Made by a program: the position numbers and the translations under genes. A stretch of 44,479 nt of DNA from the IMG/VR virus record IMGVR_UViG_2526164662_000049. One strand, written 5' to 3'. Below, in pieces: positions 29,758-44,137 of the stretch. The DNA is from a virus (taxonomy: Duplodnaviria > Heunggongvirae > Uroviricota > Caudoviricetes). Each line of letters starts with the position of its first letter. The first letter of the stretch is position 1. The notes under the pieces are model-generated. The model worked only from the letters and a program-made list of their open reading frames with translations. It made no database searches and was not told where the DNA came from.

Positions 29758-30003
29758 AGCCTGCTTCTCCTTGCCTTTCGGCACGTAAGAGGCTAACCTA
29801 CATTTGTGAGACATAGATTGGGCCTCAGATTAATGTTAAGCGTCTTGCAGGACGCGTAATGTTAACTGGGGCTTTTCTCTATCTGCCTTTTGGTGTTCAT
29901 GCCTGAGACAGATAGCCTCAAGCACCCGCAGCAATTCTACTTAACTCTCCTTTTCCCGCAAACCGTTTTTACCCGATATGGGAATTCCCATATCGTAATG
30001 AAT

Positions 30004-30108
30004 TCAGTTCCCTAGTCGATCCATCAAAAACACAACCAGGCAGTAAACGCCCACAACAGCAACAACAGCCAGCGCACCTTCCATTGCCAGTGATATATCA
30101 TCCGACAT
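30004..30108 (-). CDS. small hydrophobic peptide (34 aa)
   Basis: ATG with strong AGGAGGG RBS; MSDDISLAMEGALAVVAVVGVYCLVVFLMDRLGN; not in ORF track (shorter than 60 aa). Confidence 0.25.
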   Translation of the reverse strand: MSDDISLAMEGALAVVAVVGVYCLVVFLMDRLGN

Positions 30109-30143
30109 ATTCCCTCCTTTGGTGTTAATCCCGGCGAACGTTT

Positions 30144-30227
30144 TTACCCCCACCGACAAATAACATATACTAAAAAAGCGATAGCCATAGCAACGCCTGT
30201 AATTGCAAATGCTTCAGGCCAGTTCAT
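30144..30227 (-). CDS. small hydrophobic peptide (27 aa), ATGA-coupled to upstream gene
   Basis: MNWPEAFAITGVAMAIAFLVYVICRWG; start overlaps stop of DUF551 gene. Confidence 0.25.
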   Translation of the reverse strand: MNWPEAFAITGVAMAIAFLVYVICRWG

Positions 30228-31093
30228 TGGCGCACCTCCTGCGGCGGTTCTGGTAGCGGCATCCAGTGTGACGGTTTCCACGACGCACCAGGAATTATCC
30301 ACCCATCATTAGCGTCAGGATGACCCGGGATGTAAGTCGCCCATTTCATTCGCCAGTCACCTTTCCTGTCAAACTCCACGGCAACAAGAACGGCTGTTTT
30401 GGTATCCGGCATTCGCTCACTACAGCTTATCCAACTATCCGGAGTTACCGGATAGTTGCCCGATAGTGCATTCTGCTCCAGTGATGCTTTTACAAACCAC
30501 GCTGCCTGAACTATAACGCCATGAATCCAGCGCAAATCAGCATCGCGATCTTTCTTTTTCATCTTTTCGCCACTTAAGGCCTTGCTTATGTGGCTGCGTA
30601 CCAGGTCTTCATGTAATTCCTTCGCCTCCTCAATGGTGAAACCACCAGGCAGAAGAGCCGGAGTTACCGGAGAGCTGGTTGACGCTTCCGGGATTTTCCG
30701 AAAATTATTGGTTGACGAATCTTTATTTTCCCGAAAGTTTCCGGACTGAAGCATGGCTTCGCGGCAATCGTTCCAGCCTGTAGCGTATGCAGCCGCTTTG
30801 CTGCTGCCTTCAACTGGCGCATCCTGCCAATACATTTCTTCCGGCACTATCGGCGCTGGAGGGGCGGCAAATAGATATCCGCCAAAGTCAGGAAGCTCTC
30901 TAATGGCCTGTACAAATTTTTGTTTGCCTACGTCAACCCCTAATGGGTAATGAGCTATAATCTTTGCCACCGGCTCTGCTTCCAGCGATGCCAGCGCAAT
31001 CCGTGCCAGTTCCATTTGTTCACCACGGGTAAGCCCGTTTTCAAGCGGATTTTTAATGAACAATTCAATACGTTCTTTGGTAATAGTGGTCAT
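30224..31093 (-). CDS. phage protein with C-terminal DUF551-like domain
   Basis: 289 aa; C-terminal region with W/P-rich ending typical of DUF551 nin-region proteins. Confidence 0.55.
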   Translation of the reverse strand: MTTITKERIELFIKNPLENGLTRGEQMELARIALASLEAEPVAKIIAHYPLGVDVGKQKFVQAIRELPDFGGYLFAAPPAPIVPEEMYWQDAPVEGSSKAAAYATGWNDCREAMLQSGNFRENKDSSTNNFRKIPEASTSSPVTPALLPGGFTIEEAKELHEDLVRSHISKALSGEKMKKKDRDADLRWIHGVIVQAAWFVKASLEQNALSGNYPVTPDSWISCSERMPDTKTAVLVAVEFDRKGDWRMKWATYIPGHPDANDGWIIPGASWKPSHWMPLPEPPQEVRQ

Positions 31094-31162
31094 GTGTTAC
31101 TCCTTAACCCGCAGTGCTTTCAACTGATGAGGGGAACAAAATCTTTTCATCAAACCCTGCAT

Positions 31163-31380
31163 TCATATCATGAACAGCAACACACCAATCCATCGACGAA
31201 CGATTATCAAGAGCCTCCATGATTTCATCCATGCGGCGTAGGTCATACAGGTAAATGCTTTTATCGCCAATGGTGTAAAAGCCAATGGTGTAAAAGCCAA
31301 TTTTTTCGGTGATGGACAGCGATCAAGAACTTCCTGTAATTCGTTTAACCATGCCCGTTCTTTTTTTGTCAAAGTTGCCA
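31163..31380 (-). CDS. small hypothetical protein containing tandem 15 bp repeat
   Basis: start MATLTKKERAW with AAGGA RBS; repeat encodes LAFTPLAFTPL. Confidence 0.3.
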
Positions 31381-31634
31381 TATCAGTTTTCCTTATACGG
31401 ATTAATTTTATTGTGCAGTGTGTTGAACGACGCTCATACAACGTCGTTATACAATTCAGTAACTGGCTCAATTATTTTCCCGATTGCCCAGACTAGGATT
31501 AGAGGGGATATCGGTATCATCAATACGATAAACAGAATGAGAAACAGAAATTCTGTCGTTCTACTCTTTCGCGGATATTCTTTTCTGAATAATGTAGTCC
31601 ATTCATTACCGCCCTTTCGGGCGGCCTCCTGACA

Positions 31635-31847
31635 TTAATCGTTGTGGTAACTCATGGCTTCATTTGCAGCATCAACTGGATCAACCTCCCACCAGCAATA
31701 ATTTGGTGCGTTTCCTTCAGGCGTCCATGGTTCTAATTCATTTTTTGCCACATTCTCGTCGCCAGTGATTTTAAGAATCTGCTCAGAGAATTTTCTTACC
31801 CACTCGTTATATTTTTCCGCATTAATGGCTTTCTGTGTATTTAACAT
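31635..31847 (-). CDS. small hypothetical phage protein
   Basis: 70 aa ORF in nin-like region. Confidence 0.4.
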   Translation of the reverse strand: MLNTQKAINAEKYNEWVRKFSEQILKITGDENVAKNELEPWTPEGNAPNYCWWEVDPVDAANEAMSYHND

Positions 31848-31952
31848 AGATACTCCTCCGGTTAAGGATTAAATTTTATTTACAGTGCTGAACTTAATTA
31901 TTCAGATTTGGATTATGCTTTCTCTTCACGAAGTTCCGATTGTTAATTTGGC

Positions 31953-32390
31953 TCACAACAGCACCTTCTGAAAATTACCCTGATAGAAAGCCAGTACACG
32001 CTGCATAGCTTCGCTCTTCCGGCACTCGCTACAGATTATGTTCAGACGCCTGTCGTAGCGGCGTATTTCTCCGTCTGGTAATGACCAGATAAGATCCGGA
32101 TCAACCACAGATGGTTTCTTCACCTTTGCCCTAGATAGTTTTTTGCGGGCATTTTGCCAGTCCTTACGAGCCTGTTCAGACGGGAATAACCCGTAACCAG
32201 AGTTGTATACATCGCCACTGGCAACCAGCTCTCTGGTGAGAACGCTCATCAGATATCTTGTCGCACCTGTCTTGGCTTCCAGTTGCCGTAACGTCTCGCG
32301 CCCACTCCGGCGTACTAGTTCAACAACCTGCCCTTTAATTTTTTCCCGCTCTTCTTGTGTAAATACTTTTGCCATAAGCGCCTCCGGCAA
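31953..32390 (-). CDS. hypothetical protein, possible winged-helix
   Basis: 145 aa ORF starting at stop of upstream gene. Confidence 0.45.
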   Translation of the reverse strand: MPEALMAKVFTQEEREKIKGQVVELVRRSGRETLRQLEAKTGATRYLMSVLTRELVASGDVYNSGYGLFPSEQARKDWQNARKKLSRAKVKKPSVVDPDLIWSLPDGEIRRYDRRLNIICSECRKSEAMQRVLAFYQGNFQKVLL

Positions 32391-36433: not shown

Positions 36434-36829
36434 ACCATTTATTGGATTAATTCAATATTCTTGCTGTAGGGGTATAGCCGAGGCCACCAAAGCCCGGAGG
36501 TGGTGAAATAAAACCGGGCACAACACGAAGGCGCATTTCCGGTATCCATAAAGAGTCGGTCTTGTCTGTTAAATTTAAATGGTGGGAGTGCGCCTCCGGT
36601 TGTAAATAACGACATTGCTATGTGTAGTCTTTGGCGGCATCAGTTCTACTCCGTGGCTGCCCTGCCGCCCCTTTTTAAAGTGAATTTTGTGATGCGGTGA
36701 ATGCGGCTAAGCGCACGCGGCACAGTTAAAAGCATCAGTGTTATGGGTGGATTATCCGGCGTTAATTGTTAACTGGTTAACGTCACCTGGAGGCACCAGG
36801 CACCGCATCGACAAAATTCATTTGTAAAA

Positions 36830-37063
36830 ATGGAGATAATTATGATTGCTCATCACTTCGGAACTGATGAAATACCACGTCAGTGTGTGACTCCTGGCGA
36901 TTATGTTCTTCATGAAGGTCGGACATATATCGCCTCGGCAAACAATATTAAAAAGCGAAAACTTTATATTCGTAACCTGACTACAAAAACATGCATTTCT
37001 GACTGCATGATTAAAGTCTTCCTCGGTCGTGATGGTTTACCTGTAAAGGCGGAGTCATGGTGA
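36830..37063 (+). CDS. kilR: KilR-like cell-division inhibitor
   Basis: 77 aa ORF ([21 protein letters not shown]...); recalled similarity to Rac KilR; upstream of ydaE-like and racC. Confidence 0.55.
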
Positions 37064-37233
37064 TGACTAAGAAAATAAAATGTGCTTATCACCTTTGCAA
37101 TAAAGAAATTGAAGAAAGCAAAATCATTACAAGACCACTTCATTTCATGCGTGGAGTTATACCAACGACGGAAATGAAAAAATATTGTAGTGAAATCTGT
37201 GCCGAAAAAGACCAGATGGCACACGAACTTTAA
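37063..37233 (+). CDS. ydaE: YdaE-like small Cys-rich (metal-binding) protein
   Basis: 56 aa [16 protein letters not shown]...YCSEICAEKDQMAHEL; start overlaps kilR stop; not in ORF track (shorter than 60 aa). Confidence 0.45.
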   Translation: MTKKIKCAYHLCNKEIEESKIITRPLHFMRGVIPTTEMKKYCSEICAEKDQMAHEL

Positions 37234-37307
37234 TTAACTGACTATCCGAAACTGAATTTATGCCAGCAATGGCAGGGATTCGCTCAACCTTAATTAAGGA
37301 GAAAAAC

Positions 37308-37583
37308 ATGATTACCAGTTATGAAGCCACTGTTGTTACTACTGATGACATTGTTCACGAAGTCAGCCTGGAAGGAAAGCGTATTGGCTACGTGATTAAA
37401 ACAGAAAATAAAGAAACCCCTTTCACTGTGGTTGATATCGACGGTCCATCAGGCAACGTTAAAACGCTTAACGAAGGCGTCAAAAAAATGTGCCTGGTGC
37501 ATATCGGAAAGAATCTGCCCGCAGAAAAAAAAGCCGAATTTCTGGCAACTCTGATTGCAATGAAATTAAAAGGTGAAATCTGA
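37308..37583 (+). CDS. racC: RacC-like protein
   Basis: 91 aa from MITSYEATVVTTDD with AGGAG RBS; matches recalled Rac RacC. Confidence 0.65.
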   Translation: MITSYEATVVTTDDIVHEVSLEGKRIGYVIKTENKETPFTVVDIDGPSGNVKTLNEGVKKMCLVHIGKNLPAEKKAEFLATLIAMKLKGEI

Positions 37584-37683
37584 AAGAAATAGCCTGCGTA
37601 TGGCGCAGGCTATGAACAGTGTGTATCCGGCAAGATTATTCACTGAACAAACGAATTTTAATCTGAGTTGAGGTTAAAAAACA

Positions 37684-40600
37684 ATGAGCACCGATAAACA
37701 AGTTTACCCACTGTATTACGAAGCAAAAAATGACAAAGTAAGAAAACGTCTCGGTATTAAAGGCGGTTTTTACTGGGCTGAAGCGAAAAAATTATCCATT
37801 GCCATCTCCCGTGGTGCTGTTGCGATTGACGATGCTGGCTACGATGAAGATGACTTCAAAAAACCTGTTCGCGTCAATTTGCCCGTTGTTGATGACCTCC
37901 CGCCAGAAGGCGTATTTGATACGGAATTCTGCAACCGTTACGAAAAAGGCGGGGAAGATGGCATCACAATGGTATTTATCGCGCCCTCACCCTCTGCGCA
38001 GGGCAAACCAGCCGGCACTGACAACACCAATGTTAATGGCGAAGACATGACGGAGATTGAGGAGAATATGCTACTCCCGATTTCTGGCCAGGAGCTGCCC
38101 ATTCGCTGGCTTGCTCAACACGGCAGCGAAAAACCGGTAACGCACGTTTCACGCGACGAACTCCAGGCATTACACATTGCACGGGCCGAGGAACTACCAG
38201 CTGTTACTGCCCTGGCTGTTTCCCACAAAACCAGCCTGCTCGATCCGCTGGAAATTCGCGATCTCCACAAACTGGTGCGTGATACTGACAGAGTTTTCCC
38301 TAATCCAGGCAATTCAAGCCTGGGGCTGATGACTGCTTTTTTCGAAGCATACATGAACGCAGACTACACCGATCGCGGTCTGCTGACAAAAGAGTGGATG
38401 AAAGAAAATCGTGTTTCACGCATCACGCGCACGGCTTCCTGCGCTAATGCTGGCGGCGGGAACCTCACCGATCGCGGCGAAGGTTTCGTTCACGATCTGA
38501 CGTCACTGGCGCGCGACGTAGCCACTGGCGTACTGGCTCGTTCAATGGACGTGGACATTTATAACCTTCATCCGGCACACGCTAAACGTGTCGAGGAAAT
38601 TATCGCTGAAAATAAACCGCCCTTTTCTGTTTTCCGCGACAAATTCATCACCATGCCTGGCGGGCTGGATTATTCCCGCGCCATCGTGGTTGCGTCCGTA
38701 AAAGAAGCACCAATTGGGATCGAGGTTATCCCCGCACACGTCACTGAATATCTGAACAAAGTACTGACTGAAACTGATCATGCCAACCCTGATCCGGAAA
38801 TCGTGGATATTGCCTGCGGTCGTTCCTCTGCCCCGATGCCGCAGCGTGTAACAGAAGAAGAAAAACAGGATGATGAAGAAAAACTGCAACCATCTTGCGC
38901 AATGGCAGATGAACAGGCAACGGCTGAAACAGTGGAACCGGATGCAACTGAACATCATCAGGACACGCAGCCGCTGGATGCTCAGTCACAGGTAAATTCT
39001 GTTGATGCGAAATATCAGAAACTGCGGGCAGAACTCCATGAAGCCCGGAAAAACATTCCGCCCAAAAATCCTGTCGATGCAGATAAATTACTGGCTGCCT
39101 CTCGCGGAGAATTTGTTGAAGGGATTAGCGACCCGAATGATCCGAAATGGGTTAAGGGGATCCAGACCCGCGACTCCGTGTACCAGAATCAGCCAGAAAC
39201 GGAACAGAACGACCCAAATACGCAACAAAACGAGCCAGAAACGAAACAGCCTGAGCCAGTAGTGCAACAACAGGAAACGGAGAAAGTTTGCACCGCCTGC
39301 GGTAAGGCTGGCGGCGGCAACTGTCCTGACTGTGGCGCGGTGATGGGCGACGCAACGTATCAGAAAACCTTTAATGAAGAAAATCAGAATGAATATCAGG
39401 AAAAAGGTCTGGAGGAAATGGAAGGTGCTGAACATCCGCACAAGGAGAACGCTGGCAGCAATCCGCATTGCGATTGCAGTGATGAAGCTGGTGAAGCGAC
39501 AGCACCTGTAGTAACTGAAATCATGTGGCCGTCATATTTCGAGCCTGGCCGCTATGAAAACCTCCCGAACGAGGTTTATCACTCCGCCAACGGAATAAGC
39601 AGCACAATGCTGAAGGATGCCCGCATCAGCCTGATGTATTACCACGGACGGCACATTGCCGGAACTATTCCGAGCGAGGAAAGTGATGCATTGCTGCGTG
39701 GGCGGATTATTCACAGCTATGTTCTGGAAACGGATAAATTCGCTGATGAGTATGCCATTCCGGTACCGGTTCCTGAATATGTGGTTACTACTTCTAACGA
39801 ACTGATCGCCATCATTAAAAAACACAATGCCAGTCTGCCAGCACCGATGACACCAGAGCAGATGAAAGAGTGGATCGAAAGCTACAACAGCACTCTTATA
39901 CAGCCACTGTCGGTAAGTGCCTGGGCCGAAGAAACAGGCATCCTTTACGGTTCGCTTCCGGAGGAATTCCGGCGTATTCCTGAGGGGGAAAAATACACAG
40001 CATCAGCAATGAAAGCCTGTATTAAAGAATACAACGCAAACCTCCCTCCTCTGTTGAAAACCAGTGGATCACGGGAGCAACTTCTGGAGCAAATTGAAAC
40101 TGTAGATCCAGAACTGGCAAAAAAAGAACGTGCTAAATCTTTGCCTTACAACATCAGTGGCACAAAAGAGCAATTAACCGAAATCGCACGGAAAATTCGC
40201 CCGGAACTGGTGACACTGGAAGACTGGCAAAAACGCCAGCAAGAAGAAAACGCCGGGAAAACGTTTATCAGTCCGGATATGTATGAACAGGCAAAAAATA
40301 TTCACGCTGCACTGCAAAACAATACCGATGCAGCAAGGCTACTCAACCACCCGGATCGCAAATCTGAAATCAGCTATTTCGGGTTTGATGAAGAAACCGG
40401 GCTGGAAATCAGGGTCCGTCCTGATATCGAAATCCGGCTGCCATACGAAAGCATTTGCGCCGACGTGAAGTCAGTCAGCCTCGGTTATGTGCGACAGGAA
40501 CGACTGAAAGATCGCCTGCACCGTGAAATTATTGAGCGTGATTATCACCTCAGCGCAGCAATGTATTGCGATGTGGCAAACCTGGACAAATTTTTCTGGA

Positions 40601-40812
40601 TCTTCGTCAACAAAGATGCTGGCTATCACTGGGTGGCCGTCGTGGAAGCCTCGCAGGAACTCCTGGAACTTGGTCGACAGGAATATCGCCGGACGCTACG
40701 ACAGATAAATGAAGCTCTGGAGACAAACAACTGGCCAGCACCGATTACCGAAAGTTATACCGACGAATTAAACGACTTTGATCTTCGTCGTCTTGAAGCA
40801 CTGAGCATCTGA
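37684..40812 (+). CDS. recE: exodeoxyribonuclease VIII (RecE-like), 1042 aa
   Basis: N-terminal 600 aa closely resemble recalled Rac RecE; C-terminal PD-(D/E)xK-like motifs ([19 protein letters not shown]) in a divergent, longer nuclease domain. Confidence 0.8.
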
Positions 40813-40823
40813 GGAAGGACACA

Positions 40824-41876
40824 ATGAACGAATTAACTCAACAAGAAAATATTAACTCTAATGTTGCGGTTTTCAGCCCTCAGTCCCTGGCTGCAATTCA
40901 GACATTTTCCCAGGTAATGGCTTCCGGCATGGCTACTGTACCGGAACACCTCCGGGGAAATCCATCAGACTGCATGGCCATCACCATGCAGGCGATGCAG
41001 TGGCAAATGAACCCTTACGCAGTAGCTCAGAAAACTTTCGTTGTGAATGGTGTGCTCGGATATGAAGCGCAACTGGTTAATGCCGTAATCAGTACTCGTG
41101 GGCCGCTAACCGGGCGTATTGAATATGACTGGTTCGGGCCGTGGGAAAAAATTATCGGGAAATTTGAAATCAGGAAGAACGACAAGGGGAAAGAATATCG
41201 TGTGCCTGGCTGGAAGCTGGCCGATGAAAACGGGATCGGTGTTCGCGTCCAGGCAACACTACGCGGAGAGAGCAAGCCACGCGTACTGGAGTTACTTCTG
41301 GCGCAGGCCAGAACACGTAACTCAACGTTATGGGCCGATGATCCTCGCCAGCAGCTTGCCTATCTGGCTCTGAAACGCTGGGCGCGCCTTTATTGCCCTG
41401 AAGTGATTCTTGGAGTGTACACCCGGGACGAACTGGACGAACCACAGGAAAAAATCATTAATCCGGTTCAGGAACATAAAAACACATCCGCCTGCCGTGC
41501 GGAACGTGAAACAACAATTATTGAGCAGGATGCCGGGGAAAACTGGATCAGTGCTTTCCGTGAACGTATTGAGCAGGCACAAAGCACCGGAGAAACAACG
41601 GCACTTCGCCAGGAAGTGGAAGATCATAAAAATACACTTGGCGCTCTCTACACAGAACTTAAAGGAAAAGTGGTTCAGCGTCATCACCGTCTCAATGCTA
41701 TTGCCCGTATTGAGAAGATGATAAATGACCTGCCTTCATCAGGTGATCCAGAAGCAGAACAAAAATTTATTGCTCTGGAAAATACGCTGAATGCTGCACG
41801 ACCACATCTGGGAGAATTATATGAGGCGTATAAAATGACACTGACAGATATGAAACCAGAATATATCGGCTCCTGA
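40824..41876 (+). CDS. single-strand annealing recombinase (RecT-family-like) with C-terminal extension
   Basis: 350 aa directly downstream of recE-like gene; N-terminal region compatible with RecT fold; not close to K-12 RecT. Confidence 0.55.
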   Translation: MNELTQQENINSNVAVFSPQSLAAIQTFSQVMASGMATVPEHLRGNPSDCMAITMQAMQWQMNPYAVAQKTFVVNGVLGYEAQLVNAVISTRGPLTGRIEYDWFGPWEKIIGKFEIRKNDKGKEYRVPGWKLADENGIGVRVQATLRGESKPRVLELLLAQARTRNSTLWADDPRQQLAYLALKRWARLYCPEVILGVYTRDELDEPQEKIINPVQEHKNTSACRAERETTIIEQDAGENWISAFRERIEQAQSTGETTALRQEVEDHKNTLGALYTELKGKVVQRHHRLNAIARIEKMINDLPSSGDPEAEQKFIALENTLNAARPHLGELYEAYKMTLTDMKPEYIGS

Positions 41877-41939
41877 TATTTACTATGGCGGTGTAGCCTC
41901 ACCGCCATAACAAAACTTTATTTTATGAGAGAAAAGACA

Positions 41940-42134
41940 ATGCGGTATGAAAAAGTCAAACCATGTCCGTTTTGTGGTTGTCCATCAGTAACGGTGAAAG
42001 CCATTTCAGGATATTACCGCGCAAAGTGTAACGGATGCGAATCCCGAACTGGCTATAGTGGAAGTGAAAAAGAAGCACTCGAAAGATGGAATAAACGAAC
42101 TACTGGAAATAATAATGGAGGTGTTCATGTATAA
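41940..42134 (+). CDS. ralR: Lar/RalR restriction-alleviation protein (type I toxin RalR-like)
   Basis: 64 aa MRYEKVKPCPFCGCPSVTVKAISGYYRAKCNGCESRTGY... Cys4 motif; matches recalled Rac RalR. Confidence 0.7.
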   Translation: MRYEKVKPCPFCGCPSVTVKAISGYYRAKCNGCESRTGYSGSEKEALERWNKRTTGNNNGGVHV

Positions 42135-42315
42135 AATTACTGCCACTATTGAAAAGGAAGGTGGCACTCCTACTAACTGGACAAGGTACTCAAAAACAAA
42201 ATTAACCAAATCAGAATGCGAAAAAATGCTCTCAGGGAAAAAAGAAGCAGGCGTTTCCAGAGAGCAGAAAGTAAAGCTGATAAATTTTAATTGCGAGAAG
42301 CTTCTGTCCTCGTGA
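42127..42315 (+). CDS. ydaC: YdaC-like protein (DUF1187-like)
   Basis: 62 aa MYKITATIEKEGGTPTNWTRY...; start overlaps ralR stop; Rac-like order. Confidence 0.5.
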   Translation: MYKITATIEKEGGTPTNWTRYSKTKLTKSECEKMLSGKKEAGVSREQKVKLINFNCEKLLSS

Positions 42316-42415
42316 GTTGCATTATATACAAATTAGAACTTCATAGCTGATTATTAAAAATCAACCACACCCGCCAGTATTCTGTATATTTACTGGCGGT
42401 CATATCGTAAGAGGT

Positions 42416-42703
42416 ATGGCAATGAATCTTGTGACACTCAAAACGTGGGGAAAACTCAGATATCCGGATAACCCACCATCAATATCAACGCTGAGACGAT
42501 GGGCAAGGAATGGAAACATTTATCCTGCACCTGAACTACACGGGAGGAGTTACAGAGTGGTTCCGGAGGCTTTCTATATCAACCCAAATAAGGTTGATAC
42601 CGATATAACACACCATCAGCCTAATGGGCGACAAGGGAGAGACAGTCCGTTACTGGAGAAGTTAAAACATGCAGCGGAAAAAATACGATCCCAATTTGCC
42701 TAA
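42416..42703 (+). CDS. xis: excisionase-like protein
   Basis: 95 aa ORF immediately upstream of and overlapping integrase start. Confidence 0.55.
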   Translation: MAMNLVTLKTWGKLRYPDNPPSISTLRRWARNGNIYPAPELHGRSYRVVPEAFYINPNKVDTDITHHQPNGRQGRDSPLLEKLKHAAEKIRSQFA

Positions 42704-43745
42704 AAACTTAACATATCGAAGGAGGGACAAAGCATATTACTGGCGCAACCCTCTGACGAAAGAAGAATTTACACTAGGTAAAATTTCAAGAAGAGATGCA
42801 GTAGCGCAGGCAATTGAAGCAAATCATTATATATACAAAAACTACTCTCCTGCTGCCTTAATTGAAAAGCTTAAAGGGTTCGACTCATTTACTATGGCAG
42901 ACTGGATTGAACGTTACAAAACGATTCTTATAAGGAGAAAAGTGTCCAGAAATACTTATAAAATTCGGGTAAATCAACTGGAGACAATAAAAGAAAAATT
43001 GGGAGGGATTTTACTGACAGAAATAACAACTCGCCATATTGCCGAGTTTCTTGATTTGTGGATTGAAGGAGGGAAAAACACAATGGCAGGATCAATGCGT
43101 TCTGTGTTGTCTGATATGTTTCGCGAGGCCATTGTTGAAGGACGTATATCTCAAAATCCAGTAACGCCAACAAGAGCACCGAAAATAGTAGTTACAAGAG
43201 AACGACTGAAACTAAAGACATACAACTGCATCAGGGAGGCAGCAGATCAACTTCCGGCATGGTTCCCATTAGCTATGGATTTAGCCCTTGTAACAGGACA
43301 ACGTCGCGAAGACATAACGAATATGCGGTTCAGTGATATTTATGATGATCGTCTCCACATCAGGCAAATTAAGACAGGAATGATGATTGCTATCCCCCTG
43401 TCACTCAGCCTTCCTGTCGCTGGTCTACGGCTTGGTACAGTAGTTGAACGGTGCCGCCTGGTAAGCCGGGGAGATTATCTAATCAGTGCCGGGATTAGAA
43501 AAAACAGCCCTGACGGCAGCATTCACCCGGATGGCCTGACAAAAAAATTTGTCGCAGCCAGAAAATTAACAGGTATCCAGTTCAGTGAAAACCCACCAAC
43601 TTTTCACGAGATCAGAAGTCTGGCTGGACGATTGTACAAAGAAACATGTGGAGAAGAATTTGCCCAGCGCCTACTTGGTCACACATCGGAGAAGACAACA
43701 AAAATGTATCTTGATGAGCGAGAAAAAACGTACTTACTGCTCTGA
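42669..43745 (+). CDS. int: lambda-family tyrosine integrase
   Basis: 358 aa; collinear similarity to lambda Int incl. HELRSL and LLGH..xxxY C-terminal motifs. Confidence 0.85.
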
Positions 43746-43865: not shown

Positions 43866-43900
43866 TAAATACAATTAAAAAAAGACCGAATACGATTCCT
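43866..43900. repeat. attR core region (sdsR 3' terminus reconstituted at prophage junction)
   Basis: aaaaaaagaccgaatacgattcctgtattcggtcc; direct repeat of 1067-1098; partial third copy at 43793-43815. Confidence 0.5.
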
Positions 43901-43979
43901 GTATTCGGTCCAGGGAAATGGCTCTTGGGAGAGAGCCGTGCGCTAAAAGTTGGCATTAATGCAGGCTTAGTTGCCTTGC
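43877..43979 (-). ncRNA. sdsR: SdsR (RyeB) small RNA
   Basis: minus-strand sequence GCAAGGCAACUAAGCCUGCAUUAAUGCC... ending in terminator hairpin plus U-run; matches recalled E. coli SdsR. Confidence 0.8.
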
Positions 43980-44137
43980 CCTTTAAGAATAGATGACGAC
44001 GCCAGGTTTTCCAGTTTGCGTGCAAAATGGTCAATAAAAAGCGTGGTGGTCATCAGCTGAAATGTTAAAAACCGCCCGTTCTGGTGAAAGAACTGAGGCG
44101 GTTTTTTTATTGGAAATCAAAAGGCTATTTTAGGTAA

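Follow-up and report, generated by a model that had tools for sequence, protein, structure and literature searches.

In the 44,479-nucleotide stretch of Caudoviricetes DNA recorded in IMG/VR as IMGVR_UViG_2526164662_000049 (hereafter the window), the recE and recT genes of a prophage very probably encode an exonuclease and annealase (single-strand-annealing) pair of the Gifsy-1/mEp237 type, which phage recombination put into a Rac-like early-left operon with the order kilR-ydaE-racC-recE-recT-ralR-xis-int. The swap is ordinary lambdoid mosaicism and creates no new kind of system. The cassette is a RecET of the Gifsy-1/mEp237/HK225/Rac-SA53 type, already catalogued, fairly common and correctly annotated in RefSeq, where a 99.9%-identical locus carries the labels "recE: exodeoxyribonuclease VIII" and "RecT family recombinase". 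We found no earlier account of the repeats in an insert of a RecE loop and of their variable number, nor of quantitative evidence that the C-terminal domain (CTD) of RecT, not its annealing core, tracks the nuclease.

Boundaries of the swapped cassette

We took the Rac prophage of Escherichia coli K-12 as the reference and compared proteins by BLASTP and alignment, and DNA by blastn. The nucleotide identity was 93% from kilR to racC and the first recE codons (36801-37691), and 89.8% inside recE (38022-39496), with no match in the interval between them (37692-38021). No match was found over the nuclease domain and recT (39497-41918), beyond which the identity returned to 92% in ralR and ydaC (41919-42365). 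Flanks of about 90-93% around a segment of undetectable identity indicate that the cassette was exchanged by a module swap, as a sequence-only reading of the window had suggested, and both breakpoints, 39497 and 41918, are sharp. The left junction falls on RecE codon 605/606, at a domain boundary, so that the crossover fused a Rac-type N-terminal region in frame to a different RecE-fold PD-(D/E)XK nuclease.

The protein comparison gave the same picture. Residues 113-229 and 230-605 are 94% and 88% identical to K-12 RecE (866 residues), whereas residues 1-57 and 58-112 reach 24% and 31%. The statement that the first 600 residues track Rac RecE therefore holds for residues 113-605 but not for roughly the first 112. 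Beyond the junction, residues 606-693 are about 31-32% identical to K-12 residues 589-667, and residues 856-1042 are 30% identical to the K-12 nuclease domain. Opposite residues 694-855, K-12 RecE has just 22 residues (669-690), and the nuclease domain is about 150 residues bigger than its K-12 counterpart, chiefly by this one insertion. With 30-32% identity, a 162-residue insert and no nucleotide similarity, the domain is not an orthologue of the K-12-type RecE nuclease (residues 606-866); the description of this region as longer and quite different, with PD-(D/E)xK-like motifs retained, proved accurate. In the profile databases, the whole RecE protein nevertheless matches the exonuclease VIII equivalog NF007259 of NCBIfam from end to end (1563.7 bits against a cutoff of 1269), and Pfam places Exonuc_VIII at residues 52-189 and DUF3799 (PF12684) at residues 855-1019 (50.2 bits against a 26-bit cutoff).

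The annealase has 350 residues against 269 in K-12 RecT, and the excess of 81 residues agrees with the earlier estimate of about 80. K-12 RecT, whose partner RecE has a known nuclease domain structure (PDB 3H4R), lacks this excess and the tethered helical CTD. The tail, which had been called unrelated, indeed differs, but the divergence is not confined to it: BLASTP of the whole annealase against K-12 RecT returned nothing significant (E = 0.35). The protein matches Pfam RecT (PF03837) at residues 30-209 with 147.9 bits against a 24-bit cutoff (E = 3.5e-43), as K-12 RecT also does, and no NCBIfam model at E <= 0.01. Neither pairwise similarity nor a naming NCBIfam model thus supports orthology to K-12 RecT. 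The C-terminal domains are, accordingly, not ordinary K-12 domains with minor divergence, given a nuclease identity of about 30% and a RecT without BLASTP similarity.

Relatives and frequency of the cassette

Five domain profiles (two nuclease halves, the insert, the RecT core and the CTD) all match Gifsy-1, mEp237 and Rac-SA53 with domain identities of 42-63%, and the architecture is that of Gifsy-1/mEp237. Compared with the nuclease domain in the window, those of mEp237, HK225, Gifsy-1 and Klebsiella prophages are about 52% identical, and a RecT of 367-370 residues follows in each case. Like the pair in the window, the RecET modules of Gifsy-1/Gifsy-2 and mEp237/HK225 consist of a long nuclease with the insert followed by a RecT of 350-370 residues with the same CTD, and have no anti-RecBCD gene; their RecT proteins are about 50% identical to the one in the window. 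They differ in their RecE N-terminal regions, which are 27-31% identical, the one in the window being of the Rac type. A 2025 survey of lambdoid Rec modules in Genome Res, in which these RecET modules fall into class B, has Gifsy-1 as a prototype with a nuclease and an annealase but no anti-RecBCD gene (PMC12315714). The recET orthologues of Gifsy-1 and Gifsy-2 suppress recombination defects when de-repressed and are therefore genetically functional; it is from these Gifsy prophages only that genetic evidence for in vivo recombination by a long-type RecET cassette comes (PMC3121763).

Escherichia phage Rac-SA53 (KU052037) resembles the window in its nuclease domain (97%), its RecT CTD (81%) and its Rac-like operon. 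It differs in RecE residues 1-229 and in most of the RecT core (57% by BLASTP over the core), and is integrated at ttcA. A literature search on "Rac-SA53" found nothing relevant.

At thresholds of at least 95% identity and at least 80% coverage, the cassette occurs in 159 of the 5426 complete E. coli genomes, in copies of 95-99% nucleotide identity. The K-12-type cassette is found in 1728 of these genomes, and sequence resembling the recE N-terminal region in 4706. The RecT sequence cluster has 855 members.

The N-terminal region as a common platform

RecE residues 1-610 recur with 81% identity in an 800-residue protein of E. coli OkiPb01696 (locus L006, 4001-6403), which from about residue 610 carries a DnaQ-like, Rv2179c-type 3'-5' exonuclease domain (PF16473) and has no recT downstream. 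The non-K-12 version of residues 1-112 is also present in those E. coli proteins with the DnaQ-like exonuclease. Fusions of this type imply that the RecE N-terminal region carries at least three C-terminal nuclease cassettes at the same joining point, namely the K-12 short form, the Gifsy-type long form and the DnaQ-like 3'-5' exonuclease; DnaQ-like nucleases in Rec modules are also listed in the lambdoid survey (PMC12315714). The name RecE in E. coli genomes thus covers a set of chimeras that have one conserved N-terminal region in common.

Within that region, residues 536-550 (window 39289-39333) contain a CxxC-x7-CxxC motif that is kept in K-12 RecE (CNACGQTGGDNCPDCG). It resembles a small zinc ribbon, for which a weak NCBIfam zinc-ribbon match (E = 0.009) was the sole profile hint.

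The nuclease domain and its helical insert

An exhaustive profile search with the nuclease domain collected 3660 relatives. The long domain is complete in about 25 of their clusters (at 50% identity), and stand-alone versions of about 430 residues are also among them. Five catalytic residues, H677, E895, D914, D927 and K929, do not vary among 31 diverse homologues; their K-12 counterparts are H652, E729, D748, D759 and K761. The domain belongs to the RecE fold. Enterobacter phage Arya (L009, 2501-4913) has a stand-alone long-type RecE-like nuclease of 458 residues with a weak match to the insert profile. The gene after it encodes an AAA_24 (Sak4-like) protein instead of a RecT, which shows the long form of the nuclease paired with another class of recombinase as well.

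AlphaFold2 modelled the insert as eight helices with a predicted local distance difference test score (pLDDT) of 82-96, and hhalign detected internal repeats, aligning residues 698-742 with 766-812 (E = 6e-11) and residues 787-812 with 818-843 (E = 2e-10). The spacing between the two nuclease halves falls into size classes of about 65 residues (6 loci), about 160 residues (137 loci) and about 210 residues (2 loci), which fits a variable number of repeat units. The K-12 residues that the insert replaces (669-690) lie within loop 665-698 of K-12 RecE, which is disordered, sits at the rim of the channel and has been described as forming DNA-capture loops (review PMC11611040). This position suggests that the insert most likely acts in substrate engagement.

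The insert contains conserved basic positions (K777, K781, K792, R797, K828 and R836), and its fold shows a weak resemblance to small helical DNA-binding modules, a SAP domain among them. In Pfam, two families of the HeH/SAP (helix-extended-helix) type stayed below their cutoffs of about 26 bits, Ish1 (E = 0.051) and SAP_new25 (E = 0.059) scoring 13-14 bits. The insert is thus not supported as a generic basic DNA-binding domain, being net acidic and having no family match above threshold. We also rejected the idea that the insert repeats are the docking site of the RecT CTD, because the one-unit loci (about 65 residues; L114, L115, L117, L129, L154 and L174) retain the same CTD; with the CTD kept beside one or three repeats, the insert is not an obligatory dock for it.

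Architecture of RecT

The AlphaFold2 model of RecT, built on a 38-sequence alignment with a pLDDT of 70, shows a core (residues about 12-193, pLDDT about 70-80), a linker (residues 194-237) with a pLDDT below 50 and 25-36% conservation, and an all-helical CTD of roughly 110 residues (238-347, pLDDT 81-89). By BLASTP, the core is 53-57% identical to those of Rac-SA53, mEp237 and Gifsy-1. In 15-residue windows against Rac-SA53, recT has a mosaic patch at residues 91-165, where most windows are 27-47% identical and one is 67%, and residues 286-350 are 93-100% identical. The CTD is 36% identical to that of the annealase from Aeromonas phage pAEv1818, whose core differs.

A helical domain on a flexible linker is the layout of Red-beta. 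As in lambda Exo/Red-beta, the module combines an exonuclease with an annealase whose N-terminal core binds DNA and is joined by a flexible linker to a helical CTD. The two systems differ in their nucleases, which belong to the YqaJ/lambda Exo family in lambda and to RecE/DUF3799 here, and we detected no sequence or fold match between the two CTDs.

Co-inheritance of the RecT C-terminal domain and the nuclease

We scanned the best 80 viral loci, 80 species-representative genome loci and individual phage records with the five domain profiles. All of the best 80 RecT-based viral loci carry the CTD, so that the viral scan probes one direction of the association only; CTD-less cases came from the individual phage records. 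Every intact CTD locus has a long-type nuclease upstream, and the exceptions lie on truncated contigs or in prophages that have decayed. In five genome loci and in Aeromonas phage pAEv1818, the long nuclease and the CTD occur together with another RecT core. Vibrio phage XM1, the Uetakevirus-like TL-2011b, Tyrion and SPN9TCW have a similar RecT core (48-63%) with a different C-terminus, and their nuclease is without this insert.

One decayed locus, in Citrobacter braakii (L098, 4840-6264), holds a 474-residue open reading frame that joins the RecE N-terminus to the RecT C-terminal domain. It is a recE-N::recT-C deletion fusion from prophage decay, and such erosion can mislead surveys of domain architecture.

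Co-variation was measured as Pearson correlations of pairwise identities over 119 non-identical loci. For the nuclease, r was 0.96 against the insert and 0.86 against the CTD but 0.37 against the RecT core; for the core against the CTD it was 0.34. None of 999 Mantel permutations reached the observed value, and the difference between the nuclease-CTD and nuclease-core correlations was 0.49 (0.41-0.56 by subsampling). The ranking was the same for 67 non-redundant domain combinations (nuclease-CTD 0.81, nuclease-core 0.20, core-CTD 0.17). Since the core separates the nuclease from the CTD along the DNA, linkage alone would predict the reverse order. These data suggest that the CTD, and not the annealing core, stays matched to the nuclease. 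We read this as functional coupling analogous to that of the Red-beta CTD with lambda Exo, the CTD most likely being a module that couples RecT to its cognate nuclease.

A possible mechanism and its alternatives

Homology suggests that the nuclease domain, which like K-12 RecE presumably forms an oligomeric ring, digests the 5' strand at a double-strand end, and that RecT coats the resulting 3' overhang and anneals it to complementary DNA. The variable-copy helical repeats elaborate the rim loop that captures DNA in K-12 RecE, and the disordered linker would tether the CTD, which most likely couples RecT to the nuclease on the model of Red-beta and lambda Exo.

Several points weigh against this reading of the pair. 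Its activity, oligomeric state and protein contacts are all assigned by homology. The co-variation sample was drawn via RecT and CTD queries, consists mostly of Enterobacterales prophages and contains phylogenetically non-independent sequences. The insert is net acidic (-5 in the window, with a family median of -8). Foldseek of the RecT model against the PDB returned nothing at E <= 0.001 and phmmer against PDB sequences nothing significant, so that no relationship between the CTD and that of Red-beta could be established. The CTD might bind SSB of the host or some other factor, either in place of the nuclease or in addition to it.

That nothing was exchanged, and that the C-terminal half of recE together with recT descends by fast divergence from the K-12 Rac genes, is hardly credible. 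Both nucleases do have the RecE fold and its catalytic residues, and both annealases match Pfam RecT, but at two sharp points the identity changes between about 90% and undetectable, with about 92% regained downstream. Moreover, the cassette is 52% identical to Gifsy-1/mEp237 against only about 30% to K-12, and the N-terminal region is also fused to an unrelated DnaQ-like exonuclease. The genes could also be inactive relics of a decaying prophage, considering that K-12 Rac is defective with a silent recET, that the racC just upstream is annotated as frameshifted in a near-identical genome, and that decayed versions of the cassette exist in other species, such as the C. braakii fusion. We regard this as very unlikely, because both open reading frames are full-length, every catalytic residue is present and the Shine-Dalgarno sequence is intact. 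Moreover, 159 genomes conserve the cassette, and the surrounding prophage is near-complete, with its structural, lysis and replication genes all in place.

For the CTD, the alternative is a mainly host-directed coupling, to the C-terminal tail of SSB or to another factor, in which case its co-inheritance with the nuclease would reflect shared history or host range. The hosts are nearly all Enterobacterales with conserved SSB tails, yet the CTD follows the nuclease and the core does not, which makes this account rather improbable in our view. It draws on the Red-beta CTD, which binds SSB as well as lambda Exo (review PMC11611040), on a 2026 study that proposes several coupling modes, SSB among them, for RecT C-terminal helical bundles (PMC13490951), and on the fact that the argument for a CTD-nuclease contact is one from co-inheritance. 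The insert, in turn, might be a module for protein interaction or regulation, or an acidic mimic of DNA, instead of engaging DNA. Its family-wide acidity, the lack of a DNA-binding family above threshold and the natural variation of the repeat number in an otherwise conserved system are compatible with such a role, which we consider possible but unlikely: the insert occupies exactly the position of the DNA-capture loops of K-12 RecE, conserves its basic positions, weakly resembles helical DNA-binding modules including the SAP domain, and is not an obligatory dock for the CTD, which is retained beside one or three repeats.

Among these possibilities we favour the swap of a Gifsy-1/mEp237-type pair, with a CTD coupled to the nuclease and an insert that engages the substrate. 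We tentatively propose, as an idea with less than even prospects, that the long-type RecET is a structurally uncharacterised system in which a portable RecT CTD confers specificity and the RecE capture loop has grown into a repeat of one, three or four units that alters DNA-end engagement. On this view the CTD would remain with its nuclease domain as lineages exchange their annealing cores. If both were true, natural chimeras would offer boundaries, at RecE codon 605 and within the RecT linker (194-237), for orthogonal recombineering pairs. The suggested matching of CTD and nuclease is a practical hint for mixing exonuclease and annealase pairs in recombineering. It also addresses a point left open by the lambdoid survey, which considered "shuffling of partner interaction domains" to be probably behind many combinations (PMC12315714).

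Gene coordinates and prophage surroundings

The coordinates of the two genes and their parts are compiled in Table 1. The Shine-Dalgarno sequence of recT follows directly 3' of the recE stop codon, and the ATG lies 4 nucleotides further on.

Table 1. Parts of the recE-recT locus, in window coordinates
Feature	Position	Strand	Remark or basis
recE	37684..40812	+	1042 residues, chimeric exonuclease VIII; open reading frame intact
RecE residues 1-112, N-terminal segment unlike K-12	37684..38019	+	low amino acid identity, no nucleotide match
RecE residues 113-605, K-12 Rac-like, function unknown	38020..39498	+	amino acid and nucleotide identity
Swapped cassette: nuclease domain, recT and 3' spacer	39497..41918	+	no nucleotide similarity to K-12 Rac
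Nuclease domain, N-terminal part, RecE residues 606-693 with His677	39499..39762	+	alignment to K-12
Helical repeat insert, RecE residues 694-855 (162 residues)	39763..40248	+	alignment, AlphaFold2, hhalign
Catalytic PD-(D/E)XK core, RecE residues 856-1042, E895/D914/D927/K929	40249..40812	+	
Shine-Dalgarno sequence GGAAGGA for recT	40813-40819	+	read from sequence
recT	40824..41876	+	350 residues; open reading frame intact
RecT annealing core, residues 1-193	40824..41402	+	Pfam RecT, AlphaFold2
RecT predicted disordered linker, residues 194-237	41403..41534	+	low pLDDT, poor conservation
RecT C-terminal helical domain, residues 238-350, and stop codon	41535..41876	+	AlphaFold2, identity

On the right flank of the swapped cassette, the RalR/RalA region is 92% identical to K-12 Rac. 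It comprises the gene of the restriction-alleviation toxin RalR/Lar (41925-42134, plus strand) and, antisense downstream of it, the RalA antitoxin small RNA (42133-42311, minus strand; 212 bits). Further small RNAs were found with Rfam at window 43873-44017, where SraC/RyeA (plus strand) and SdsR/RyeB (minus strand) lie just outside the int end (int 42669-43745). Their position beside int indicates that the prophage was inserted at the ryeA/ryeB small RNA locus between pphA and yebY and not at ttcA; it adjoins yebY and ryeA/sdsR, whereas K-12 Rac is located at ttcA.

In the early-left operon, Rfam places the small RNA DicF (60.9 bits) at 36619-36670 on the plus strand, upstream of kilR. The racC-like open reading frame just upstream of recE (37260-37583) encodes 107 residues without a Pfam match; in genome NZ_CP054556, which is 99.8% identical, it carries a frameshift according to the annotation. 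Window 29946-31980 is unlike the otherwise near-identical prophage of E. coli LWY24: it encodes a 289-residue DUF551 protein, in place of which the LWY24 prophage has an ATP-binding protein and a STAS-like protein, and this difference in content marks the interval as a variable accessory slot.

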